A stretch of DNA of 14,088 nucleotides from a virus (Duplodnaviria > Heunggongvirae > Uroviricota > Caudoviricetes), in IMG/VR virus record IMGVR_UViG_2695420814_000008. One strand, written 5' to 3'. The position numbers were made by a program, and so were the translations under genes. Under the pieces are notes generated by a model. That model searched no databases, had not been told where the DNA came from, and was given only the letters and a program-made list of their open reading frames with translations. Positions 1-12,532 of this stretch are shown here, piece by piece; positions within the stretch are counted from its first letter, which is position 1, and each line of letters opens with the position of its first letter.

Positions 1-79
1 GCCTTCAGGGAAAAATATCATCAGATGGCTGCTTAAAAAAAGAACAAATGGTAGTGTCCGCTATTGCCAGTACACCTCA
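1..79 (+). mobile_element. Right end of an IS3-family (IS600-like) element, including the last 11 codons and stop of its orfB (1..36); the element presumably continues left of the window
   Basis: Positions 1-79 match 5868-5946 (3' end of the transposase ORF 5085..5903 plus terminal sequence ending ...CACCTCA); sequence diverges at 81. RC of the end is TGAGGTG..., the TG...CA terminus typical of the IS3 family. Confidence 0.8.
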
Positions 80-206
80 GGGTATAAGGGGTTATGGCCA
101 CCGGACTACCAAACGGCTGCCAGCCCTCTTTCAGTTTATGTGTCAGCTTTTCCGCAAGATCTGACGGCGGCGCCGCCCTGACAACATCATAGTGTTTAAA
201 TGCCAT
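80..206 (-). pseudogene. 5' part of a small phage-associated gene (MAFKHYDVVRAAPPSDLAEKLTHKLKEGWQPFGSPVAITPY...) truncated by the IS600-like end; resembles small DUF1737-type prophage proteins (from memory)
   Basis: ATG at 206 preceded by GGTGGAAAG (SD-like); reading frame runs straight into the IS end at 79/80 (track ORF 33..221), so the native C-terminus is lost. Confidence 0.3.
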
Positions 207-466
207 GGTTCTTTCCACCATCTGAAAAATAATTCTTTAAAATACCTGACATGTAATACAGAAAAAACACAAAACCATACCTTAAATAAAAACCTGATTA
301 TCAAGCAGATATGCATGGATAAACTACAAGACGAGATATAAACCACCCTGCATTTAAATAAACAATAAACAACATCAGAAAAATAATTCTGCTCTATGGT
401 TTACATTCAAAAATATCATTTATACTTTTCAGAACATCACCAGCAAGGCATAAACAAGGAAACTAA

Positions 467-802
467 ATGAAGTGGATTGTGATTGATACAGTTATCCAGC
501 CATCATGCGGAATATCTTTTTCAGTCATATGGAGTAAAATAAAATTAATAATCTGGTATCAATCGGATGCTTTCTTACCTCCTGAAAGTATATTTACACT
601 GACTCACACAGGCATCATGCTCAATAACAAAGTGCTACCTGTAACCATTTACAACGTAGTACCATTCAATAAAACATTCTGGAATTCAATCAAAAATAGC
701 CAGGAATGCCCTACAAATACAGATAACGTATTGAATGAATGCTTTAATAACCGTTGCACTCTGCAAATATGTCCTTATGGACTAAAACAACAAAGTCCAT
801 AA
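467..802 (+). CDS. Hypothetical 111-aa protein in AT-rich DNA, C-terminal third Cys-rich; no family recognised
   Basis: ORF track; AAGGAAA about 7 nt upstream of ATG; long open frame in a block visibly AT-rich where stops are frequent by chance; followed by a strong hairpin at 837-858. Confidence 0.35.
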
Positions 803-836
803 GGAGTTTACTCACATCTGACAAAATCAATATAAA

Positions 837-858
837 CAGCCCCTCCGGAGAGGGGCTG
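837..858 (-). terminator. Perfect 9-bp GC-rich stem-loop (CAGCCCCTC-CGGA-GAGGGGCTG); U-tract only on the minus-strand reading
   Basis: Inverted repeat read directly; on the minus strand it is followed by TTTATATTGATTTT, on the plus strand it lacks a T-run. Confidence 0.4.
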
Positions 859-1249
859 GAGAGTGGCGCTATGTGCCATTGCATGGTGCCGGGTGCCTCC
901 CGGTGAATTCAGTACCAGCACCTGAATCCGCGATTATCCCATATACCTACTCGCTGATTGCCCCTCCGCACAGGGGGATTCACCATGCCAGTTTCTTTTA
1001 ACAAACTCCCCGCAAACCAGACAACAGTCAACCGCCTGAATTGTGAAGTATTTAAAAATTTCTCCCGCTAACTGATACCCGGCTAACAGTCTGGCGTTTT
1101 CTTTTTCAGCAACGGGAAAGCAACAACCACCACACCCGCCACCAGCACACCGTCAGCCAGCACTGACATTATCCGGCTGCTGCAATGCCATTCACAAAAA
1201 CAGTAAGCAATCACTTTTTACCGTAACAGGTGATAATCCAGATATGTAT

Positions 1250-1603
1250 CTACCCCAGATGAGTAATCCGAAGTTCATCCATACCACAGGTCCTGGCTAT
1301 TCTGTTGTACTCCTGAACAAGAGCAAATAATTCTGAATTAGCAACCATGAACTCATCGCAAACCCTCTGTATAGCATCACTATTCAGAATAATAACGTCT
1401 CTTCCCGAAAGACGATCAGGAGTACAGAACAAAACTGTCAAACGGCTGAAGGCCTTTGCTCGTGCTGCATTGACTATATCAATACGCTGCCTAAGGATGA
1501 AACACCCCGACGCCTCATCAATATTCACTCTACCCACACCATATGAATGATAAATATTTAATGCTGAAAAAACCATTAGACCGTATAACAAACACTCAAT
1601 CAA
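1250..1603 (-). CDS. Hypothetical protein (117 aa from TTG at 1603; 108 aa from first ATG at 1576); not recognised
   Basis: ORF track; lies just downstream (minus strand) of the phage tRNA pair in the position where lambdoid phages carry moron genes; no convincing SD, and an overlapping plus-strand ORF (1347..1550) exists, so coding strand is uncertain. Confidence 0.3.
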   Translation of the reverse strand: MIECLLYGLMVFSALNIYHSYGVGRVNIDEASGCFILRQRIDIVNAARAKAFSRLTVLFCTPDRLSGRDVIILNSDAIQRVCDEFMVANSELFALVQEYNRIARTCGMDELRITHLG

Positions 1604-1713
1604 TACTTAACAGAACTTTTATTTTTGACAAACATAAAATATTTTCAACAATATCCTGAGCCAGGTATATTTCAGTATAAGGCTCTGCCGGAAGGAATCT
1701 GGAAGAATGAATA

Positions 1714-1790
1714 TGGCGCGCTGTACTGGATTCGAACCAGTGACCGATTGCTTAGAAGGCAATTGCTCTGTCCGGCTGAGCTAACAACGC
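1714..1790 (-). tRNA. tRNA-Arg, anticodon UCU (phage-type, argN-like)
   Basis: RC reads GCGTTGTTAGCTCAGCCGGACAGAGCAATTGCCTTCTAAGCAATCGGTCACTGGTTCGAATCCAGTACAGCGCGCCA: 7-bp acceptor stem (one G-U), GCTCAG D-arm, anticodon stem ATTGC/GCAAT with loop CTTCTAA, GGTTCGAATCC T-arm, encoded CCA. Confidence 0.85.
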
Positions 1791-1890
1791 TGAATACCGA
1801 TAATGGACCGCCATCGGGGACCCGCCCCCGCACCAACAACCCTGTTATCGTGTCGTCTGCTCTTCCTGATAAGCTAATGGCGGTTTGTGA

Positions 1891-1966
1891 TGGTGGCCCT
1901 TGCTGGATTTGAACCAGCGACCTGGCGATTATGAGTCGCTCGCTCTCACCACTGAGCTAAAGGGCC
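1891..1966 (-). tRNA. tRNA with CAU anticodon, most similar to tRNA-Ile2 (ileX/ileZ type, lysidine-modified) rather than tRNA-Met
   Basis: RC reads GGCCCTTTAGCTCAGTGGTGAGAGCGAGCGACTCATAATCGCCAGGTCGCTGGTTCAAATCCAGCAAGGGCCACCA: 7-bp acceptor stem, anticodon loop CTCATAA, T-arm GGTTCAAATCC, encoded CCA; overall close to remembered E. coli ileX. Confidence 0.8.
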
Positions 1967-2007
1967 GGGAGCAGAATAATAACGGTCCGTAATTAATTCC
2001 GCAATAA

Positions 2008-2034
2008 AAAACCCGCTCGGCGGCGGGTTGTAGA
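2008..2034 (-). terminator. Rho-independent terminator about 35 nt downstream of the Q-like gene (candidate tR'-type site or plain operon terminator)
   Basis: Plus strand AATAAAAAA-AACCCGC-TCGGCG-GCGGGTT; on the minus strand a 7-bp GC-rich stem is followed by UUUUUUAUU. Confidence 0.6.
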
Positions 2035-2068
2035 AACTCTTCTAACGTCAGGCATAAAACGCCCATAG

Positions 2069-2923
2069 TTATGACGAATTTACCACAGATTCCGGAAAAA
2101 TCAACCTAGTTACCTTTTTTAACTGCCGCTCAGCCCATGCTTCTTCAATATCAAACCGAGTCACCAGCGCATCATAGAATTTCTTAACTGTTTTTTCCCA
2201 TGACGCGCGTGTTATCTGGTTTGTCACCTCGCATATAGCATTAAATGCCTCCGTTGATGGTAGTCTTTCATAGCCACGACCACCACAACGCTGGCAGTCT
2301 CTGATAACAGGCATACCACGTTTTACCGACTCTTCACGATGAATGGCGACACCACGCCCACGGCAATCCTTACAGGCGGTGGAAACCTCACCCTTTCCGC
2401 CACACTCCGGACAGGCAACTTTTACCACCTCCCTGACTTTTTTCCATTCTTCCCAGTAAGACGGATACACACCTTTCGTACACTTTGCCCATACCGGCGG
2501 CTTACCATCCGGATACTGGACCTTGTTTGTAAAAACTACGCTTTCAATAAATTTTTCCCCATAGCAACAAGGGCACTGCTTTTTACTCGCTGCGCTGCGG
2601 GCATAATCCTCAAAAGCGTACGAAGCCATAATGCGCATCACTACCGGTTTTATTTCTGCCGGAAGTTTTCTCAACGCCGCCACACGATCGCACCGACTGA
2701 GTGCATAATCTGCCAGTAATTCTGTTGCCCGCGCCCTGTCATTCATACTGATGCCCATTTTCCCCAGGAACGCAGAAAACCCCATCTCAGCCCGATTCTG
2801 TGTCATGCCCTGCGCGGCCATCACATCAGTGATACTCAGCGCATCTTTTGACGTTGAGGCCGATGCATCGGTCAGGCAAGGGGATTTTGGGGAGTAGTAT
2901 TTCGGTAAATCTTCCAGTTTCAT
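2069..2923 (-). CDS. Lambdoid late-region regulator, putative Q-like antiterminator, carrying four DnaJ-type zinc-finger repeats (CPCCYGEKF, CPECGGKGE, CKDCRGRGV, CQRCGGRGY)
   Basis: 284-aa ORF; start ATG overlaps the rusA stop (ATGA); immediately downstream of rusA and upstream of a terminator and phage tRNAs, the canonical Q slot. Product assignment is by position plus motifs, not by recognised sequence identity. Confidence 0.55.
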   Translation of the reverse strand: MKLEDLPKYYSPKSPCLTDASASTSKDALSITDVMAAQGMTQNRAEMGFSAFLGKMGISMNDRARATELLADYALSRCDRVAALRKLPAEIKPVVMRIMASYAFEDYARSAASKKQCPCCYGEKFIESVVFTNKVQYPDGKPPVWAKCTKGVYPSYWEEWKKVREVVKVACPECGGKGEVSTACKDCRGRGVAIHREESVKRGMPVIRDCQRCGGRGYERLPSTEAFNAICEVTNQITRASWEKTVKKFYDALVTRFDIEEAWAERQLKKVTRLIFPESVVNSS

Positions 2924-3294
2924 TTTTTGACCTGCTCTTCATGCATTATGGGGTAAATCTTCACCCCCAGACGTCCACCAGATACTGGCTGACCACGAAC
3001 GATATTGATTTCATCAAACTGCTCATCGTCCATTAACACTCCCGCATGTGTCAGTGCATCCAGTGGTGCTTTCAGGATATTGTCCAGGTCACGACGGCGC
3101 TTATCCGGTGGCTCTGCAATAATCTTTATCGCCAGTCTTCCGGACAGGCTTAATTTCAGTCGCTGCTGACGGACAATAAGCGCCACATCCCGGCGATAAC
3201 GCTCACCGGCTTTTGATACAAAATATGTGTTGTCACGACGTCGCCAGTAAGTATTCACCGTCGGCGGATAAGGTAAAATAAACTCATGGCGCAT
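2920..3294 (-). CDS. rusA: RusA-family Holliday-junction resolvase (prophage crossover junction endodeoxyribonuclease)
   Basis: 124-aa ORF with ...PPDKRRRDLDNILKAPLDALTHAGVLMDDEQ..., matching the RusA catalytic-core motif (D-RRRDLDN) as remembered from E. coli RusA; typical nin-region location. Confidence 0.85.
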   Translation of the reverse strand: MRHEFILPYPPTVNTYWRRRDNTYFVSKAGERYRRDVALIVRQQRLKLSLSGRLAIKIIAEPPDKRRRDLDNILKAPLDALTHAGVLMDDEQFDEINIVRGQPVSGGRLGVKIYPIMHEEQVKK

Positions 3295-3551
3295 CAGCGC
3301 AGCACCTCCTGCACCAGTTTTTCAAACTTTCCGACTCTGGTTTCCAGCTCTGCCACACAGTCCACCAGCTCATCTACTGCTTTCTGTGCGCGATGCTTCG
3401 CCTGCATCAGTTCCCGAAGCGCGGGTACCATATCTTTACGGATAGCGTCTTTTGTTATGCCCGTTTTTTCGAGTTGTTCAGCATGACGCAGCATTTCCTG
3501 CGCGTGTTTACGCAATTGTTCAGGGGTAAAAGTCATTGTCTGGTTGTTCAA
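3294..3551 (-). CDS. Small hypothetical nin-region protein (85 aa from TTG at 3551; alternative ATG at 3536), predicted helical
   Basis: ORF track; stop overlaps rusA start by 1 nt (TGATG); GGAG 9 nt upstream of the TTG. Confidence 0.5.
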   Translation of the reverse strand: MNNQTMTFTPEQLRKHAQEMLRHAEQLEKTGITKDAIRKDMVPALRELMQAKHRAQKAVDELVDCVAELETRVGKFEKLVQEVLR

Positions 3552-3587
3552 AAGAAACGCTCCATCTTACTGCTGTCAGTTCGTTTA

Positions 3588-3671
3588 TTACTGTATCTGC
3601 GCGGATTGCCGGGCTTCATGGGAGTGGAAAGCACCCGTGCACTTTCCTGGTCCACAGGCAGAAAATGTCCG
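3588..3671 (-). pseudogene. 3' remnant (last 27 codons, ...RTFSACGPGKCTGAFHSHEARQSAQIQ*) of an upstream phage gene cut by the IS2 left end
   Basis: The open frame runs from the IS2 boundary at 3671/3672 to a stop at 3588; the track ORF 3588..3806 is this frame fused to IS2 sequence. Confidence 0.3.
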
Positions 3672-3826
3672 TAGACTGGCCCCCTGAATCTCCAGACAAC
3701 CAGTATCACTTAAATAAGTGATAGTCTTAATACTAGTTTTTAGACTAGTCATTGGAGTACAGATGATTGATGTCTTAGGGCCGGAGAAACGCAGACGGCG
3801 TACCACACAGGAAAAGATCGCAATTG
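3672..3826 (+). mobile_element. IS2 5' fragment: left terminal repeat (TAGACTGGCCCCCTGAATCTCCAGACAACC...) plus first 18 codons of orfA, then abruptly joined to an IS21-family end
   Basis: Matches remembered IS2 left end; 3773-3827 equal 5948-6002 of the longer IS2 copy; junction at 3826/3827 (±1, one shared base). Confidence 0.85.
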
Positions 3827-3885
3827 TGTCAACGCCACGATGTTTGACCGTTATTTGCCATTTTCATGCCCGCTAAATACTTTCG

Positions 3886-4890
<1,005 letters not shown>

Positions 4891-5946
4891 AGAAAAGGGC
4901 TCGGTACTCCTGGTTCCCGCACGGTGGCTGAACTGGAATCTGAAATTCTGCAACTGCGTAAGGCGTTAAATGAAGCTCGCCTTGAGCGAGATATATTAAA
5001 AAAAGCAACAGCGTATTTTGCACAGGAGTCGCTGAAAAATACGCGTTAATCGAACAATGGCGACAACAATTTCCCATTGAAGCGATGTGTCAGGTATTTG
5101 GTGTATCCAGGAGCGGTTATTACAACTGGGTACAGCATGAACCCTCAGACAGAAAACAAAGTGATGAGCGGCTAAAACTGGAGATTAAGGTGGCACATAT
5201 CCGCACTCGCGAAACATATGGAACCCGGCGGCTCCAGACGGAGCTGGCAGAGAATGGCATCATCGTTGGTCGTGACCGACTGGCACGTCTTCGTAAGGAG
5301 CTAAGGCTACGCTGTAAGCAGAAACGCAAGTTCAGAGCGACTACGAACTCGAACCACAATCTGCCAGTTGCGCCAAATCTGCTGAACCAGACGTTCGCTC
5401 CTACAGCACCAAATCAGGTCTGGGTGGCGGACCTGACGTATGTTGCCACACAGGAGGGATGGTTGTACCTCGCTGGCATCAAAGATGTTTATACGTGCGA
5501 AATTGTCGGCTACGCCATGGGAGAGCGCATGACAAAAGAGCTGACAGGTAAAGCCCTGTTTATGGCGCTCAGGAGCCAGCGCCCACCTGCCGGGCTAATC
5601 CACCACTCTGATCGAGGTTCACAGTACTGCGCATACGATTACCGGGTCATACAGGAGCAGTCTGGTCTGAAAACATCAATGTCGCGTAAAGGTAACTGTT
5701 ACGACAACGCTCCGATGGAAAGCTTCTGGGGAACGCTGAAAAATGAGAGCCTGAGCCACTATCGTTTTAATAACCGGGATGAAGCCATCTCAGTAATACG
5801 GGAATACATTGAGATTTTCTACAATCGTCAGCGTCGTCACTCTCGTCTGGGGAATATCTCCCCGGCAGCCTTCAGGGAAAAATATCATCAGATGGCTGCT
5901 TAAAAAAAGAACAAATGGTAGTGTCCGCTATTGCCAGTACACCTCA
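4891..5946 (+). mobile_element. IS3-family (IS600-like) element lacking roughly its first 200 bp: orfA 3' part (4891..5049), slippery A-run, orfB, right end
   Basis: orfA frame reads ...RKGLGTPGSRTVAELESEILQLRKALNEARLERDILKKATAYFAQESLKNTR*; orfB product has the DDE-integrase core; 3' end identical to 1..79. Confidence 0.8.
5085..5903 (+). CDS. IS3-family orfB DDE transposase domain (probably made as an OrfAB fusion by -1 frameshift at the A-run 4998-5005)
   Basis: 272-aa ORF with ...WVADLTYV..., HSDRGSQY, ...[14 protein letters not shown]... (D, D, E core); orfB frame is open back across the A7G slippery run and is -1 relative to orfA. Confidence 0.85.
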
Positions 5947-5947
5947 G

Positions 5948-6313
5948 ATGATTGATGTCTTAGGGCCGGAGAAACGCAGACGGCGTACCACACAGGAAAA
6001 GATCGCAATTGTTCAGCAGAGCTTTGAACCGGGGATGACGGTCTCCCTCGTTGCCCGGCAACATGGTGTAGCAGCCAGCCAGTTATTTCTCTGGCGTAAG
6101 CAATACCAGGAAGGAAGTCTTACTGCTGTCGCCGCCGGAGAACAGGTTGTTCCTGCCTCTGAACTTGCTGCCGCCATGAAGCAGATTAAAGAACTCCAGC
6201 GCCTGCTCGGCAAGAAAACGATGGAAAATGAACTCCTCAAAGAAGCCGTTGAATATGGACGGGCAAAAAAGTGGATAGCGCACGCGCCCTTATTGCCCGG
6301 GGATGGGGAGTAA
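5948..6313 (+). CDS. insC: IS2 OrfA (InsC), HTH transposase N-terminal protein
   Basis: [41 protein letters not shown]...; the track ORF starts at an upstream in-frame ATG (5915) that lies in IS600-like sequence; slippery A AAA AAG at 6265-6271. Confidence 0.9.
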
Positions 6314-7176
6314 GCTTAGTCAGCCGTTGTCTCCGGGTGTCGCGTGCGCAGTTGCACGTCATTCTCAGACGAACCGATGACTGGATGGATGGCCGCCGCA
6401 GTCGTCACACTGATGATACGGATGTGCTTCTCCGTATACACCATGTTATCGGAGAGCTGCCCACGTATGGTTATCGTCGGGTATGGGCGCTGCTTCGCAG
6501 ACAGGCAGAACTTGATGGTATGCCTGCGATCAATGCCAAACGTGTTTACCGGATCATGCGCCAGAATGCGCTGTTGCTTGAGCGAAAACCTGCTGTACCG
6601 CCATCGAAACGGGCACATACAGGCAGAGTGGCCGTGAAAGAAAGCAATCAGCGATGGTGCTCTGACGGGTTCGAGTTCTGCTGTGATAACGGAGAGAGAC
6701 TGCGTGTCACGTTCGCGCTGGACTGCTGTGATCGTGAGGCACTGCACTGGGCGGTGACTACCGGCGGCTTCAACAGTGAAACAGTACAGGACGTCATGCT
6801 GGGAGCGGTGGAACGCCGCTTCGGCAACGATCTTCCGTCGTCTCCAGTGGAGTGGCTGACGGATAATGGTTCATGCTACCGGGCTAATGAAACACGCCAG
6901 TTCGCCCGGATGTTGGGACTTGAACCGAAGAACACGGCGGTGCGGAGTCCGGAGAGTAACGGAATAGCAGAGAGCTTCGTGAAAACGATAAAGCGTGACT
7001 ACATCAGTATCATGCCCAAACCAGACGGGTTAACGGCAGCAAAGAACCTTGCAGAGGCGTTCGAGCATTATAACGAATGGCATCCGCATAGTGCGCTGGG
7101 TTATCGCTCGCCACGGGAATATCTGCGGCAGCGGGCTTGTAATGGGTTAAGTGATAACAGATGTCTGGAAATATAG
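6271..7176 (+). CDS. insD: IS2 OrfB (InsD), DDE transposase catalytic protein, 301 aa
   Basis: ORF track; -1 frame relative to insC; sequence matches remembered InsD. Confidence 0.9.
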
Positions 7177-7187
7177 GGGCAAATCCA

Positions 7188-8752
<1,565 letters not shown>

Positions 8753-8811
8753 CGAAAGTATTTAGCGGGCATGAAAATGGCAAATAACGGTCAAACATCG
8801 TGGCGTTGACA

Positions 8812-9218
8812 ACAGTACAGGACGTCATGCTGGGAGCGGTGGAACGCCGCTTCGGCAACGATCTTCCGTCGTCTCCAGTGGAGTGGCTGACGGATAATGG
8901 TTCATGCTACCGGGCTAATGAAACACGCCAGTTCGCCCGGATGTTGGGACTTGAACCGAAGAACACGGCGGTGCGGAGTCCGGAGAGTAACGGAATAGCA
9001 GAGAGCTTCGTGAAAACGATAAAGCGTGACTACATCAGTATCATGCCCAAACCAGACGGGTTAACGGCAGCAAAGAACCTTGCAGAGGCGTTCGAGCATT
9101 ATAACGAATGGCATCCGCATAGTGCGCTGGGTTATCGCTCGCCACGGGAATATCTGCGGCAGCGGGCTTGTAATGGGTTAAGTGATAACAGATGTCTGGA
9201 AATATAGGGGCAAATCCA
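8812..9218 (+). mobile_element. insD: IS2 3' fragment (last ~407 bp: InsD C-terminal 132 codons plus right terminal repeat), a second copy of 6781-7187
   Basis: Direct identity to 6781-7187 by inspection, including the terminal GGGGCAAATCCA; the track ORF 8800..9207 is this insD fragment with a spurious start. Confidence 0.85.
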
Positions 9219-9220
9219 CG

Positions 9221-9355
9221 GGGATACCAGTTCAACCGAAAACGCCAGAGGAGGGGATTACCCGCTGGCAGGGTAAATCTGTGGTTTTTGATGCCAGCTA
9301 TAACGTGTTTGACGATAAAGTATTACGAAAGAACTTTAATGAGTTCATGGAGTAA
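9221..9355 (+). pseudogene. Orphan 3' end of an unrecognised gene (...GIPVQPKTPEEGITRWQGKSVVFDASYNVFDDKVLRKNFNEFME*) cut off by the IS2 right end
   Basis: Frame is open from the IS2 boundary to a stop at 9353-9355; no start codon or RBS of its own. Confidence 0.3.
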
Positions 9356-9498
9356 TTCGTTAAAGTAATTTACAACGCTATCCTTTTGCAAAGGAAACTT
9401 TCAGAAAATAACCCCAGGGTAATCACCTGGGGAAGGAACACAGTGTTATTATTGGATAATAAATTATTACTTGTTTTAAAGTTACACTAATGCAATAT

Positions 9499-10584
9499 CT
9501 ACTGATACTGGATGCTTGAATGTTTCATCCCTGCTGCGGAAAAGGGCAATATCCAGGGCCAGATATATTCACCGTTCATATTTCTGCATTTCTGTACAAT
9601 TTCCTCAGAAAGTGTCTTGTCAATTCTTTTCCACAGGTGCTCCTGCTGTCTTAAAATACTTTCGCATATTTCGAAATCATCTTCCTGAATCAGCATTTCG
9701 GCGCATTTAATGATTTCTGATCGTTCATGCAGCACGGAGGAATGGTTATAGAGCCAGTTTACAAACAGCAATGCTTCCGGATATTGTCCCCATAATGGTG
9801 AGTATGTTGCATAGTAATCTTCTGCCGTATCCAGAGAGCCGGAGAAGTCATGCCACACAGCAAGTGGAAATGGATGCAGATTTCCGCACAGCATTTCTGC
9901 GATGTAAGTGTTTGTGGCAAAGCCATGGCGAAAAGCTGTGGCGGCCTTAACATGTTCCCCGTTCAGAAAATGCAGGAGACCGAGTTCATACCAGTAAGGT
10001 GAAAATTCATCAGCATGCTCTTTCAGTACACTGAAGGCTCGCTCATGATCGCCGGTGCGTAACAGCTCTGAACCCAACAACCAGCGAGCCCCCTGATTAT
10101 CTTCAGGATTGTATGCCAGTATTTTATCAGTGAGCATAACCGCATCCTGATGGCGCTGTAAGTGCACATTTGCGAGAATTGCTGCATAAAGCGCGCGCAG
10201 ATAAGGCCGGTTTTCGGGATGCATCCAGATTATTTCACCACAGAAACTTTCCGGGATGATACGATTACCTGCCGCCAGTCCTTTAAGAGAGGCGTTCAGT
10301 GCCTTACGCGGGGCATTCTGTTCCAGAAATGCATATGCCAGATGAGCGTGTATATCAATAAAGTCCGGCTCCCGTTGAGCAAGGCGTCGGAGTTTGTTGA
10401 TGTAACTCGTCTCGCTGATTTCATCAGCGTCGTATGCATCAAGCACTTCTTCAAACTCCCCCAGCAATGGGCCAAACCAGGTATCCGGAAATACGAAATA
10501 ACCCTTGTTATCGTGCACTTCAAAGCATAATCTATCGTTCATTTCTGAGCCTGTAAAACATGTGGTGATATAGTCTGAGAGCAT
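9499..10584 (-). CDS. Hypothetical island cargo protein, ~361 aa from first ATG (374 aa if the GTG at 10623 is used; another ATG at 10542); alpha-helical, possibly TPR-like; no catalytic motif recognised
   Basis: Long ORF in track (9499..10623); same orientation as and immediately downstream of int; flanked on both sides by AT-rich DNA. No start candidate has a good SD, so the start is uncertain. Confidence 0.6.
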   Translation of the reverse strand: MLSDYITTCFTGSEMNDRLCFEVHDNKGYFVFPDTWFGPLLGEFEEVLDAYDADEISETSYINKLRRLAQREPDFIDIHAHLAYAFLEQNAPRKALNASLKGLAAGNRIIPESFCGEIIWMHPENRPYLRALYAAILANVHLQRHQDAVMLTDKILAYNPEDNQGARWLLGSELLRTGDHERAFSVLKEHADEFSPYWYELGLLHFLNGEHVKAATAFRHGFATNTYIAEMLCGNLHPFPLAVWHDFSGSLDTAEDYYATYSPLWGQYPEALLFVNWLYNHSSVLHERSEIIKCAEMLIQEDDFEICESILRQQEHLWKRIDKTLSEEIVQKCRNMNGEYIWPWILPFSAAGMKHSSIQYQ

Positions 10585-10871
10585 AAAAGTTGAGATTCTG
10601 TGTATCAAGTCCTGTCTTGGCACCGAATGAATATTGCTTACGAAGCCCCTTCATGCTTTCCTTGAGAACAATAATTTTATCTTTATGTGAATCTCATTTT
10701 TTATAATGATGTCAGATGATTGAAATGCTAAATTATATCTGAATCAACTTTTCCTTTGCTAAAGGTATCGAAATAACTGCAAGGCTGTATTTTGTAATTG
10801 CCAATTTAAAAATGTCAATTTGTTTTTAATTATGTTTTTGTAATAAGTTTGAAGACGCAAAAAAAATAATA

Positions 10872-10953: not shown

Positions 10954-12138
10954 TTAACTTTCCCGGCTGGAGAGTGAATCAATGTAATCAGCGTACCATT
11001 GCATCATTTCACGGCGGCCATCGAGATACAGGGCATGATTATAGGTACCCCTGATGGAATTTTTATCCACATGAGCTAACTGCATTTCAATCCAGGCGGA
11101 ATTAAAGCCTTGTTCATGCAGAATTGTACTCATGGTGTGTCTGAAACCGTGCCCTGTGAGTCTTCCCTTATATCCAAGTAATTCAATTACTTGGTTAATG
11201 CTTTCCTTACTAATTGGTTTGCGGGGATCATTTCTACCGATAAAGACTAGGGGATGATGTTTTGAGATTGGTTCAAGCTGCTTAAATAGCATAATGACCT
11301 GCTCAGAGAGCGGCACAATATGAGGTCGCTTCATCTTCATTACTTCTGCCGGGATCTCCCACAATTTTGTCTCAAAATCGATATCTTCCCAGCGTGCAAA
11401 ACGCAGTTCTTGTGTTCGTACGCCGGTTAACATAATGATCTGAGTAGCTGTCTTAGTGATTATACTTCCGGTATAACCCGCCAGATCGTTGAGGAAGTGG
11501 GGAAGTTCATTAGCAGTAAGAAAGGGAAAATGTACTTTTTTCGGTGTAGCTAAAGCACTGGCAAGATCGGGGGCTGGGTTATAGTCTGCCCGGCCAGTAA
11601 CAATTGCATAGCGGAACACCTCACCACAGCGCTGGCGGACCTTGCGCATTTTCTCCAGAGCTCCACGTTTTTCCATTTTACGCAGTGCTTCCAGTAACTC
11701 CATTGGTTTGATTTCGGCAATAGGGCGCTTGCCAATGTAGGGAAAAATGTCTTTTTCAAAGGTATCAATGATTTCATCACGATAGCGTAATGACCACCGA
11801 TCAGCTTTTGACTGGTGCCATTCGCGAGCAATAGCCTCGAACGTATTTTTCAGACTCATTTGCTGCGCGATTTTTTCTTCCTTTTTTGCCTCCCCTGGAT
11901 CGCCTCCAGCAGCGAGGAGTTTCCTGGCTTCACTGCGTTTCTCGCGAGCATCGGCTAGCGTTACATCGGGGTATACGCCAATAGAAAGCATCTTTTCTTT
12001 ACCAGCAAAGCGGTACTTCATGCGCCAGTATTTAGAACCATTAGTGTTAATCAGTAGATACATACCGCCGCCATCAGCAAGCTTATAGGGTTTGTCTTTG
12101 GGTTTTGCGGTTTTCACTTTGATATCGGTTAATGCCAT
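10954..12138 (-). CDS. int: P4-family tyrosine integrase (394 aa), apparently intact
   Basis: N-terminus MALTDIKVKTAKPKDKPYKL... typical of tRNA-associated P4-like integrases; catalytic-region motifs ...TGVRTQELRFARWEDID..., GHGFRHTMST (HxxR), ...RGTYNHALY (Tyr); strong SD GGAGG 5 nt upstream of ATG; sits beside the 3' end of selC. Confidence 0.9.
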   Translation of the reverse strand: MALTDIKVKTAKPKDKPYKLADGGGMYLLINTNGSKYWRMKYRFAGKEKMLSIGVYPDVTLADAREKRSEARKLLAAGGDPGEAKKEEKIAQQMSLKNTFEAIAREWHQSKADRWSLRYRDEIIDTFEKDIFPYIGKRPIAEIKPMELLEALRKMEKRGALEKMRKVRQRCGEVFRYAIVTGRADYNPAPDLASALATPKKVHFPFLTANELPHFLNDLAGYTGSIITKTATQIIMLTGVRTQELRFARWEDIDFETKLWEIPAEVMKMKRPHIVPLSEQVIMLFKQLEPISKHHPLVFIGRNDPRKPISKESINQVIELLGYKGRLTGHGFRHTMSTILHEQGFNSAWIEMQLAHVDKNSIRGTYNHALYLDGRREMMQWYADYIDSLSSRES

Positions 12139-12437
12139 GACATCCTCCGGCTTTTGATGAATTCATGTTCCTGAGGGGGATTTCTGCCAGTAACTAACCT
12201 GATACCCCCAATACACCCCTTGTATAACAAAGATATTGTTAAAAGCCGTTGTTATGTATCACATTTTTCCTATTATGGGGGTGCTTGTATTTCAATAGGA
12301 AATAACACCCCCTAAAGTACCCCCAAAAGAAACTTGATATGGGGTGAAGTAGGTTGACCTCAGGATACAAATAAATACTGATATACAAGGGATTAGAAGA
12401 GATTTATTGACATTGGGAGAGTTCAGAAGAGGTAAAC
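12139..12437. promoter_or_regulatory. int-selC spacer: attachment-site arm and int promoter region with repeated G5/C5-containing decamers in both orientations
   Basis: TATGGGGGTG-like motif at 12284-12293 and 12346-12355 (+), and as reverse complement at 12213-12220, 12222-12229, 12305-12313, 12319-12325; the pair at 12289-12313 forms GGGGTG...CACCCC around an AT-rich spacer. Confidence 0.4.
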
Positions 12438-12532
12438 TGGCGGAAGATCACAGGAGTCGAACCTGCCCGGGACCGCTGGCGGCCCCAACTGGATTTGAAG
12501 TCCAGCCGCCTCACCGGAGACGACGATCTTCC
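12438..12532 (-). tRNA. selC: tRNA-Sec (selenocysteine, anticodon UCA), 95 nt including encoded CCA
   Basis: RC reads GGAAGATCGTCGTCTCCGGTGAGGCGGCTGGACTTCAAATCCAGTTGGGGCCGCCAGCGGTCCCGGGCAGGTTCGACTCCTGTGATCTTCCGCCA, the E. coli selC sequence as remembered, with the long extra arm and 8-bp acceptor stem typical of tRNA-Sec. Confidence 0.95.

Follow-up and report, generated by a model that had tools for sequence, protein, structure and literature searches.

A Shigella sonnei-type remnant of a lambda-like prophage, cut down by insertion sequences and carrying Q, a late promoter and rare-codon tRNA genes

The window, that is the whole stretch of DNA that was analysed, is 14,088 nucleotides long and comes from a virus record of the Caudoviricetes (IMG/VR IMGVR_UViG_2695420814_000008). 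Towards its start lies a group of phage genes and regulatory elements between two insertion sequences (IS), with the following features.

1..82, strand not given: end of an IS600-type (IS3-family) element, the left boundary of the fragment
33..221, minus strand: DUF1737 gene with its 3' end truncated by the IS (PF08410, 57 bits)
467..802, plus strand: putative IraM-family anti-adaptor homologue, 111 aa, very AT-rich (NCBIfam NF007393)
828..1017, minus strand: STnc100 prophage sRNA, terminator hairpin at 858-837 (Rfam RF02076)
1083..1214, minus strand: DUF3927/TciB-like small protein, 43 aa, in the cargo slot
1250..1576, minus strand: phage ORF of phrog_2873, 108 aa from Met10 of a 117-aa ORF, in the cargo slot
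1714..1790, minus strand: argO-type tRNA-Arg(UCU), predicted to read AGA (ARAGORN; Rfam, 68.0 bits)
1803..1884, minus strand: decayed relic of a middle tRNA at the argN position (alignment and fold)
1891..1966, minus strand: tRNA-Ile2-type tRNA with anticodon CAU, ileZ (ARAGORN; Rfam, 72.5 bits)
1976..2004, minus strand: candidate promoter of the tRNA cluster, TTGCGG, 17 nt, TATTAT, followed by GC-rich sequence ahead of the tRNA 5' end
2003..2029, minus strand: tR'-type intrinsic terminator, stem 2029-2010 followed by a U-run (hairpin prediction and fold)
2065..2104, minus strand: late promoter pR' of lambda type, overlapping the end of the Q gene (alignment with lambda J02459)
2069..2923, minus strand: Q antiterminator of the lambda Q family, 284 aa (PF03589)
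2920..3294, minus strand: RusA Holliday-junction resolvase, end of the nin region (PF05866, 61 bits; phrog_34)
3294..3671, minus strand: 85-aa ORF and upstream phage DNA, cut by IS2 (phrog_2565)

The initial annotation, made from the sequence alone, had placed a Q gene, a terminator and tRNAs with anticodons CAU and UCU at 1714-2923, and its coordinates equal the calls of ARAGORN, Rfam, PF03589 and hairpin prediction exactly. Q, the terminator and both tRNAs are carried on the minus strand, so that the window reads backwards.

The genomic setting is that of Shigella sonnei, as window positions 1-4894 have 99.92-99.98% identity to S. sonnei chromosomes. On the left, positions 1-82 match the terminal part of several IS copies found in S. 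sonnei, the matching element being annotated as IS600 family, and homology to a prophage of E. coli 042 starts at position 77. On the right the left end of an IS2 starts at about 3672, with IS2 matches beginning at 3671/3672, and homology to the Stx2a-converting phage Stx2_EH1910 stops at 3672. The genes at both edges are incomplete, with the DUF1737 gene matching phrog_2036 over positions 1-48 of 67 only and the 85-aa ORF matching phrog_2565 over positions 121-203 of 204 only. What remains is thus a 3.6 kb remnant of a lambda-like prophage that was cut down by insertion sequences in a S. sonnei-type genome. Lysis genes, which the initial annotation proposed to look for further left, are not present there in this genome, IS600 having truncated the fragment near position 82; S. 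sonnei chromosomes have an IS after DUF1737 and no lysis genes beyond it, and such genes are present in intact relatives only. Since IS600 and IS2 removed the rest of the prophage the fragment cannot lyse the cell, and its remaining output would be at most two tRNAs, one sRNA and one IraM homologue. None of the complete E. coli genomes has the whole window, and a search of contigs with one genome per species gave no exact match to the prophage/IS2 junction. In H51, the best whole-window match among complete E. coli genomes, the common parts are only the IS elements and the selC side, and the prophage fragment is not shared.

The product of the Q ORF matches the Pfam family PF03589 'Antitermination protein Q' with 183.6 bits (cut-off 26.7), and phrog_127 'anti-termination protein Q-like' covers its residues 1-273. 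An assignment of PF03589 to the family of the phage 82 Q was ruled out by a search of the PDB, where the match is to lambda Q (7ubm/4mo1, E=1.8e-40) with both halves of lambda Q aligned. The zinc-finger cysteines of the two proteins align, CRDC...CGRC with CKDC...CQRC, and relative to lambda Q the protein contains a zinc-ribbon insert of about 68 aa. Identity is 98.9% to the Q of 042, 91.2% to that of Stx2_EH1910 and 31% to that of lambda. The exact protein sequence is recorded as Shigella sonnei or Shigella, and this Shigella form of 284 aa has 11 C-terminal residues more than the E. coli form of 273 aa because of an 8-bp deletion; a frameshift in an A-run was ruled out as the cause of the longer ORF by the alignment, in which the 8-bp deletion has taken away the stop codon. 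The natural early promoter upstream of Q has been lost to IS2, and therefore the Q protein may not be produced at all in this IS-bounded copy.

Alignment with lambda points to a late promoter just past Q that has a promoter-proximal, sigma-70-dependent pause element, with a terminator beyond it. The promoter consists of a -35 element TTGATT (2104-2099) and a TG-extended -10 element TAAATT (2082-2077), with a -10-like pause element AACTAT followed by GGG at 2070-2062 on the minus strand; the counterpart in lambda pR' (J02459) reads TTGACT, TAAATT and AACGAT GGG, and the spacer is 16 nt in the fragment and 17 nt in lambda. No Q-binding element is recognisable from the sequence, because Q is only 31% identical to that of lambda. 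The terminator hairpin has 7 pairs, 5 of them G-C, and then a T-run, lies 40 nt past the Q stop codon and is common to 042, mEp460, 640R1 and Stx2_EH1910. A Q of the lambda family would be expected to join RNA polymerase where sigma-70 makes it pause, immediately after pR'. Without Q, transcription from pR' should end at the terminator at 2029-2010 to give a leader of about 66 nt, resembling lambda 6S RNA or StxS, and with Q it would pass the terminator and continue over the tRNAs and the cargo and, where the phage is intact, on to the genes for lysis and structure.

Both tRNAs are called by ARAGORN and by Rfam, the two Rfam scores being well above the gathering score of 29 of the tRNA model, so the check that had been proposed for them came out as hoped. 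The tRNA-Arg(UCU), which probably reads AGA, is identical in 042 and mEp460 and has one difference from the copy in Stx2_EH1910. The CAU tRNA is identical to the copies in Stx2_EH1910 and PPompW and forms a valid cloverleaf with both programs. With an anticodon CAT in the DNA and a tRNA-Met label both from ARAGORN and in the records ON470612, LC567834 and PV340570, it might be taken for a methionine tRNA that brings no gain in AUA decoding. The pairs C4-G69 and C5-G68 separate tRNA-Ile2, where they are TilS determinants, from tRNA-Met, which has U4-A69 and A5-U68. The fragment keeps C4-G69 and C5-G68 as in K-12 ileX, to which 68 of its 76 bases are identical, the stem differences being largely paired on both strands; metT and metU are a poor match at about two thirds, with different acceptor and anticodon stems. 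It is also annotated as tRNA-Ile in RefSeq and as tRNA-Ile/ileZ in Min27. A methionine tRNA is thus very improbable, and a tRNA of the ileX type should read AUA once TilS turns C34 into lysidine.

The initial annotation also suggested looking for a third tRNA. No live one is called in the 100-nt spacer between the two genes, where ARAGORN makes no call and the Rfam tRNA model has no match even at E<=10, but alignment places a decayed homologue there. It aligns with tRNA-Arg(TCG) of Stx2_EH1910 and with tRNA-Lys(TTT) of PPompW, retaining the acceptor and D arms; the anticodon arm has 4 additional nt and the T-loop motif is gone, so that the element at the argN position has neither the 7-nt anticodon loop nor the T-loop of a functional tRNA. 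From its sequence the spacer is homologous, though decayed, to the tRNA that stands in the middle of the cluster in Stx phages. A form of this middle element in a Stx2g prophage has an intact T-arm and an expanded anticodon arm. In the spacer or the leader, sub-threshold matches to YrlA (16 bits), isrK (15 bits) and the Trp leader (25.7 bits) were taken as chance.

A candidate promoter for the cluster directly follows the terminator. Its -35 element TTGCGG agrees with the consensus at only 3 of 6 positions, and it went unreported in a simple scan for promoters. Invariant across six lineages, which have four different upstream contexts, are the TTG of this -35, the -10 TATTAT and the spacing of 17 nt. 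In Sakai Sp5 a start site that drives the tRNAs has been mapped experimentally between tR' and stx2AB (PMC7547250). A conserved promoter in this position would allow the tRNA cluster to be expressed in a lysogen without Q.

As tRNA genes are common attachment sites for prophages, the pair could also be host genes that served for integration and not phage cargo. The window itself has selC beside an integrase, at 10954-12532, and a recent preprint takes tRNA matches near prophage sRNAs as integration sites (10.64898/2026.05.13.724894). Yet in the phage genomes of mEp460, 640R1, Stx2_EH1910, Min27 and PhiR49_2 the tRNA pair is internal, with Q on one side and the lysis genes on the other, and adjoins no integrase or prophage end, whilst ileX and argU of K-12 are single genes at unrelated loci and copies of the cluster reach 13 per genome. 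An origin as an integration site is therefore extremely unlikely, and tRNA matches within prophages are not automatically attachment sites.

Beyond the tRNAs, which are better regarded as phage cargo, the initial annotation had seen AT-rich DNA and unrecognised ORFs. The former was borne out, with a GC content of 0.30-0.36 over 201-800 and of 0.34 over 1501-1700; the latter was not, as the genes belong to known families (phrog_2873, DUF3927/TciB-like, IraM and DUF1737), with the STnc100 sRNA in addition. What lies between the tRNAs and the genes for lysis appears to be a cargo slot, filled by stxAB in Stx phages and by the phrog_2873 gene together with the DUF3927/TciB-like gene in the lineage of the fragment. 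The 108-aa ORF matches phrog_2873 over its full length (E=3.8e-70), whereas the 117-aa ORF has no match in Pfam or NCBIfam. It is left unannotated in 042, and a homology search returned only close E. coli/Shigella relatives and no function, the homologues being proteins that are named for E. coli/Shigella or unnamed, with identities down to 56%. The DUF3927 gene is recognised from its annotation in 042, from PF13064 on the S. sonnei gene and from phrog_1470 (E=7.8e-13).

After the slot come STnc100 and the IraM-family gene, both in the Stx phage and in the lineage of the fragment. STnc100 scores 132.4 bits against RF02076 (gathering score 47) over model positions 1-206 of 206, and in Stx2_EH1910 it is found directly 3' of stx2B. 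It has been described as a prophage sRNA related to PasD, and PasD has been found near PF03589 Q genes (10.64898/2026.05.13.724894). The probable IraM homologue, which is transcribed convergent to the late transcript, matches NF007393 over its full length with 162 bits (cut-off 121), and the same annotation is found in E. coli 042, phage 640R1 and Stx2_EH1910.

The closest relatives of the fragment are non-Stx lambdoid phages and prophages. The prophage of E. coli 042 has 98% nucleotide identity over 77-3297, and in this prophage, in mEp460 and in vB_EcoS-640R1 the gene order is that of the fragment, including phrog_2873/DUF3927, STnc100, iraM and DUF1737. On one side these intact relatives also have genes for holin, YdfR, lysozyme, Rz and terminase, and upstream, on the other, DUF968/YdfU and replication genes, whereas the fragment is cut by IS on both sides and has the 8-bp deletion that lengthens Q. 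It is this non-Stx lineage from which the fragment originates. The segment 77-3297 is colinear in 788 of 5426 complete E. coli genomes, with about 98% identity among the matches listed. The tRNA cluster is found in 3061 of the 5426 (56%), with up to 13 copies per genome, and behind at least four different Q genes.

The initial annotation called the locus Stx-phage-type and noted that this arrangement precedes stxAB in Stx phages. That order is indeed found in Stx2_EH1910 and Min27, so the layout is shared; it is not special to Stx phages, given the 56% of E. coli genomes with the tRNA cluster. Direct alignment with Stx2_EH1910 gives the same succession of rusA, Q, terminator, tRNA cluster, cargo slot, STnc100 and iraM, with the lysis genes next in the phage, and there stx2AB and its flanks (L003 5088-6455) stand in place of window positions 1047-1705. 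The late-region order of a Stx-converting phage is therefore present, its lysis part in intact relatives only, and stxA and stxB are not. Might the fragment be a former Stx phage that lost stx by deletion? The shared order, which includes STnc100 and iraM past the toxin genes, would agree with this, and S. sonnei is able to acquire Stx phages. Against it, non-Stx prophages and mEp460, which have the same phrog_2873/DUF3927 in the slot, match the 3.2-kb stretch at about 98%, whereas identity to the Stx2a phage sharing this Q type reaches only 89.6% for Q and rusA, 88.5% for the tRNAs and 69% for the iraM region. Moreover tblastn with Stx2A, Stx2B and the adjacent methylase against window positions 1-3700 gave chance matches only (E>=0.5), and blastn of Stx2_EH1910 against the window gave no match within 1047-1705. 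Loss of the toxin genes is thus very unlikely. Of the two possibilities initially put forward, a cousin with different cargo or a remnant that had lost its cargo, the first fits best, and the fragment is a remnant only in that it was truncated by IS elements.

The suggestion that the tRNAs may supplement the decoding of rare codons fits the codon counts. AUA is used 13.7 times per 1000 codons in prophage genes and 4.2 times in core genes (about threefold), and AGA 8.5 and 1.7 times (about fivefold); stx2AB has 36.8 AUA and 14.7 AGA per 1000 codons, and the iraM homologue 54 AUA. These counts agree with a rare-codon supplement, as a correlation and not as proof that the tRNAs limit translation.

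Taken together, window positions 83-3671 are very probably an IS-bounded piece of a common lambdoid prophage, in which the nin region ends and the late operon begins, with non-Stx cargo and with rare-codon tRNAs that have a candidate promoter of their own. Whether such a piece still does anything for its host can be argued in two directions. It may be inert debris of this same origin and without present function, persisting only through the clonality and youth of S. sonnei. IS elements flank it on both sides, DUF1737 and the gene upstream are incomplete, decay has reached the middle tRNA, and Q lacks its upstream promoter region and has an altered C-terminus; a wide presence in S. sonnei assemblies could stem from clonality alone. 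On the other hand little or nothing has changed in the tRNAs, their promoter, pR', tR', STnc100 and the iraM homologue when they are set beside those of relatives whose late region is complete, mEp460 among them, and tRNA genes with their own promoter need nothing more from the phage. Inertness is a serious possibility on this evidence, if somewhat unlikely. More doubtful still is that the fragment is kept in S. sonnei as a small domesticated cassette, which would supply, from its own promoter, AUA and AGA tRNAs for AT-rich genes of horizontal origin, for example on the virulence plasmid, and in addition STnc100, an extra RpoS stabiliser of the IraM type and possibly the 66-nt pR'-tR' leader as a trans-acting sRNA like StxS.

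As an IS-bounded piece of a lambdoid late region the locus carries little weight as a discovery, and its value lies in annotation. The tRNAs after Q, ileZ-argN-argO upstream of stx, the design of the late promoter and terminator, STnc100 and the prophage iraM are all already described or routinely annotated. Q together with rare-codon tRNAs is the mark not of a toxin locus but of a general cargo slot in the lambdoid late region, which over half of the complete E. coli genomes have; the copy in this fragment is a dead-end, trimmed by IS in a Shigella background.

Compared with the Stx-phage late region of the 933W/Sp5/Min27 type, the fragment shares the conserved tRNA promoter but has no stx, no DNA methylase between tR' and the tRNAs and a decayed argN, and the lysis genes of these phages are missing from it because of IS600. 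Min27 has the classic order Q - ileZ - argN - argO - stx2AB under those gene names, with a Q of the 144-aa 933W/H19B type, whereas the fragment has a lambda-family Q. PMC3636060 credits Schmidt et al. 1997 with an ileX-like tRNA adjacent to stx2.

Lambda itself has a Q that is homologous over its whole length, including both CxxC pairs, and its promoter shares TTGAnT, TAAATT and the AAC(G/T)AT GGG pause element with that of the fragment. By analogy with lambda a short terminated leader is likewise expected for the fragment; the lambda leader is 194 nt long, against the roughly 66 nt predicted here. In lambda, by contrast, the interval from tR' to S is free of tRNAs and nearly free of cargo. 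Genes for tRNAs downstream of Q have been reported for SfI, Sf6, ST64T, PS3 and P21, where their position in the genome and their proposed rare-codon role are the same as in the fragment, although the tRNA species are different, being Asn-GUU and Thr-UGU (PMC3636060).

Both the coordinates and the description of the Q gene, the terminator and the tRNA pair in the initial annotation proved exact by ARAGORN, Rfam, Pfam and hairpin prediction. Comparison supports the locus as a cousin of the late region of Stx phages, one that carries a different, already catalogued cargo and in this genome is also a remnant trimmed by insertion sequences (IS). The phage features are all on the minus strand, thus the window reads backwards.

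Late region from Q to the tRNAs (pR' is the lambda-type late promoter; tRNA genes called by ARAGORN, Rfam tRNA-model scores against a gathering score of 29)
2923-2069, minus: Q, an ORF of 284 aa (Pfam PF03589 'Antitermination protein Q', 183.6 bits)
2104-2099, minus: pR' -35 hexamer, TTGATT (TTGACT in lambda)
between the hexamers: pR' spacer of 16 nt with TG at its end (17 nt in lambda)
2082-2077, minus: pR' -10 hexamer, TAAATT in window and lambda alike
2070-2062, minus: pR' pause element six bases after the -10, AACTAT GGG (AACGAT GGG in lambda)
2029-2010, minus: terminator-like hairpin and T-run, 40 nt past the Q stop
2004-1999, minus: candidate tRNA promoter -35, TTGCGG, directly past the terminator T-run
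1981-1976, minus: candidate tRNA promoter -10, TATTAT, 17 nt after TTGCGG
1891-1966, minus: tRNA with CAT anticodon (72.5 bits)
1803-1884, minus: putative decayed middle tRNA, from alignment with the middle tRNAs of other clusters
1714-1790, minus: tRNA-Arg(tct) (68.0 bits)

A PDB search shows the window Q to be homologous to lambda Q (structures 7ubm and 4mo1, E=1.8e-40), to which it is 31% identical. Lambda Q aligns with it in both halves, both zinc-finger CxxC pairs included, and the two halves are parted by an extra insert of ~68 aa (residues 114-181) that carries further CxxC motifs. The Shigella form of Q found here (284 aa) is 11 aa longer than the E. coli form (273 aa), because an 8-bp deletion at 2099-2115 (minus strand) of GTAACAAG, which is present in E. 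coli 042, took away the stop codon and added the residues LIFPESVVNSS; the lost stop had been a short way before the -35 hexamer of pR', and the extended frame also ends shortly before it. The exact 284-aa Q is found on at least 1000 contigs, and the databases name it for Shigella only, as 'antitermination protein [Shigella sonnei]' or 'MULTISPECIES [Shigella]'.

The promoter was located by taking lambda 43500-46500, the pR' region of which aligned with the sequence where the window Q ends. In lambda, polymerase that contains sigma-70 is held by the -10-like pause element at +16/+17, the site of Q loading, and the AACGAT of lambda is also found in E. coli 042 and Stx2_EH1910, a Stx2a-converting phage. 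By homology transcription would start at ~2070 and end at ~2003-2010, giving a leader of ~66 nt in the predicted fold of which the terminator (tR') is the last hairpin. This predicted pR'-tR' leader (2003-2070, minus strand) would be produced constitutively, as are lambda 6S RNA and StxS; its Rfam match to isrK is sub-threshold only (15 bits, E=2.6).

Both tRNA genes are called by tRNA tools, with ARAGORN labelling the CAT gene 'Met'. That it is a methionine tRNA is contradicted by direct comparison, as K-12 metT and metU differ from it all through the acceptor and anticodon stems, whilst 68 of its 76 bases are identical to K-12 ileX, with stem differences that are largely paired on both strands (e.g. 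pair 6-67, T-A here and C-G in ileX) and the ileX acceptor pairs C4-G69 and C5-G68 retained. RefSeq annotates the gene as tRNA-Ile, and the tRNA trio of phage Min27 is named ileZ, argN and argO. Given the ileX-type body and this naming, the 'Met' label is a mere default reading of the anticodon and the gene is of tRNA-Ile2 type, the lysidine-modified form of which should read AUA. The UCU tRNA is just ~75% identical to K-12 argU, and its copy in Stx2_EH1910 differs by one base.

The search for a third tRNA gave no functional gene, the 100-nt spacer between the pair having no ARAGORN call and no match to the Rfam tRNA model even at E<=10, but the spacer can be aligned with the tRNA in the middle of other clusters. 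The relic retains the acceptor stem, D arm and 3' CCA, but its anticodon arm is four bases longer, and its T-loop has GCG where TTC would be. The same enlarged anticodon arm, with the T-arm intact, is found in the Stx2g prophage of E. coli 06-00048 (L018 2624-2704), where the element is 'tRNA-OTHER' in RefSeq and is not called by ARAGORN. The simplest reading of the alignment is a tRNA disabled by the change in its anticodon arm that later decayed further in the window lineage. The tRNA in this position is Arg-TCG in Stx2_EH1910 but Lys-TTT in PPompW, so the middle tRNA is evolutionarily unstable.

Between the TATTAT of the candidate tRNA promoter and the mature tRNA 5' end is a 9-nt GC-rich stretch. 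The TTG of the -35, the -10 hexamer and their spacing are constant in six lineages whilst the surroundings vary, and the motif accompanies the cluster whether the upstream neighbour is tR', the gene for a methylase or some other sequence. Experimental mapping in Sakai Sp5 placed a transcription start that serves the tRNAs between tR' and stx2AB (PMC7547250). The tRNAs can thus probably be made in a lysogen without Q, and at a higher level when Q permits read-through. In the window, which is without a methylase, tR' directly adjoins this promoter. The methylase precedes the tRNAs in Stx2_EH1910 (L003 6756-7814), the Stx2g prophage and PhiR49_2 (L021 1411-1689), and Min27 DNA just upstream of the promoter (L020 1650-1690) resembles its 3' end; the cluster may originally have travelled together with that methylase.

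The ORFs after the tRNAs, at first thought unrecognised, belong to recognised families (PHROG, Pfam, NCBIfam and Rfam-type matches).

Recognised families in the cargo slot
108-aa phage protein, function unassigned (phrog_2873, E=3.8e-70)
43-aa protein, DUF3927/TciB-like
STnc100 sRNA (132 bits)
IraM-family protein, encoded on the other strand (162 bits; cut-off 121)
DUF1737 gene

Homologues of the phrog_2873 protein are found only among proteins named for E. coli or Shigella, or unnamed. According to a 2026 preprint (10.64898/2026.05.13.724894), STnc100 is prophage-encoded and related to PasD, which lies near PF03589 Q genes. The non-Stx phage vB_EcoS-640R1 has two STnc100 copies (L002 6752-6940 and 7216-7409) and lacks most of its tRNA-Arg(UCU), lost where a recombination breakpoint falls within that gene (L002 7600-7760), thus the cargo slot is rearranged even between close relatives.

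That the tRNAs may supplement the decoding of rare codons agrees with the codon counts as far as correlation goes.

Codon use per 1000 codons
18 core genes: AUA 4.2, AGA 1.7
29 genes of the E. coli 042 prophage: AUA 13.7, AGA 8.5
stx2AB: AUA 36.8, AGA 14.7
iraM homologue: AUA 54, AGA 0

AUA and AGA are enriched in the prophage genes, which fits, as a correlation only, the long-standing idea that such tRNAs offset biased codon use in the genes of phage and cargo.

Window 77-3297 occurs as a single colinear block in 788 of 5426 complete E. coli genomes (~98% identity among the matches listed), and the tRNA cluster alone in 3061 of the 5426; single genomes have as many as 13 copies, and nearly all copies are chromosomal. 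A rival reading of the tRNAs is a host tRNA attachment site, and the same preprint (10.64898/2026.05.13.724894) takes tRNA matches that lie no more than 10 kb from prophage Pas sRNAs for hot spots of integration, undetectable in phage genomes. Direct comparison contradicts an attachment site for the present locus. The block runs on into a class II holin, YdfR, lysozyme, Rz and terminase in E. coli 042, vB_EcoS-640R1 and mEp460. In contrast to the preprint, the loci examined have the clusters as internal phage cargo by PF03589 Q genes, and such internal clusters are also found in phage genome records.

In this genome the phage DNA extends from ~83 to 3671 only. On the left DUF1737 is truncated by an IS600-type element, and on the right an IS2 left end from ~3672 cuts the gene upstream of rusA.

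Remainder of the window
3672-9218: dense IS mosaic (IS2 left end, IS21-family istB, cut istA, second IS2, second istA/istB piece)
9499-10623: TPR protein, beyond the integrase
10954-12532, minus: tRNA-Sec (selC, 83.8 bits) and P4-type tyrosine integrase (394 aa)

Chromosomes bearing the exact 284-aa Q match window 1-4894 at 99.92-99.98% identity. An IS600 sits inside istA (insertion at ~4891), the IS2/IS21/IS600 mosaic being followed by the selC-linked island, with yicJ on the other side of selC. The arrangement of 3672-9218 is absent from eight S. sonnei chromosomes and all complete E. coli genomes, and the junction of fragment and island from these and from species-representative contigs, which suggests a strain-specific IS-mediated rearrangement. 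Islands linked to selC, as here, are seen in ETEC H10407 and STEC strains. Lysis genes were sought further left, but of the genes called beyond the IS in the S. sonnei loci none is recognisable as a holin, a lysozyme or an Rz type, and the only Pfam matches there are Dam and resolvase. In these loci (L010-L017) an IpaH-type effector gene (LRR_TTSS and NEL domains) lies ~7-9 kb upstream of Q and tail-fibre assembly remnants are also near; the fragment is therefore part of a prophage region that is larger and heavily broken up by IS.

The reading as a late region of Stx-phage type without stx is supported by blastn of the window against Stx2_EH1910.

Aligned segments
window 2006-3297, Stx2_EH1910 8287-9585: rusA, Q, pR' and tR' (89.6% identity)
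window 1706-2006, Stx2_EH1910 6456-6755: tRNA cluster (88.5%)
window 77-1046, Stx2_EH1910 4139-5087: STnc100, iraM and DUF1737 start (69%)

The Q proteins are 91.2% identical. Stx2_EH1910 differs by two extra blocks. In one, a hypothetical gene and the DNA methylase separate tR' from the tRNAs; in the other, stx2AB plus flanking DNA (5088-6455) takes the position of window 1047-1705, with STnc100 immediately 3' of stx2B. A decayed Stx phage would share this order of genes, but is contradicted by direct comparison, and tblastn of Stx2A, Stx2B and the methylase gave only chance matches in the window. Between the two origins first proposed, a cousin with different cargo holds; a remnant holds too, but through IS trimming in this genome rather than loss of toxin genes. 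Transfer RNA genes after Q have been reported in SfI, Sf6, ST64T, PS3 and P21, and an ileX-like gene adjoining stx2 already in 1997 (PMC3636060). Min27 has the textbook order but a Q of a different, 144-aa type, and in PPompW and PhiR49_2 the same tRNA cluster is preceded by two further Q types.
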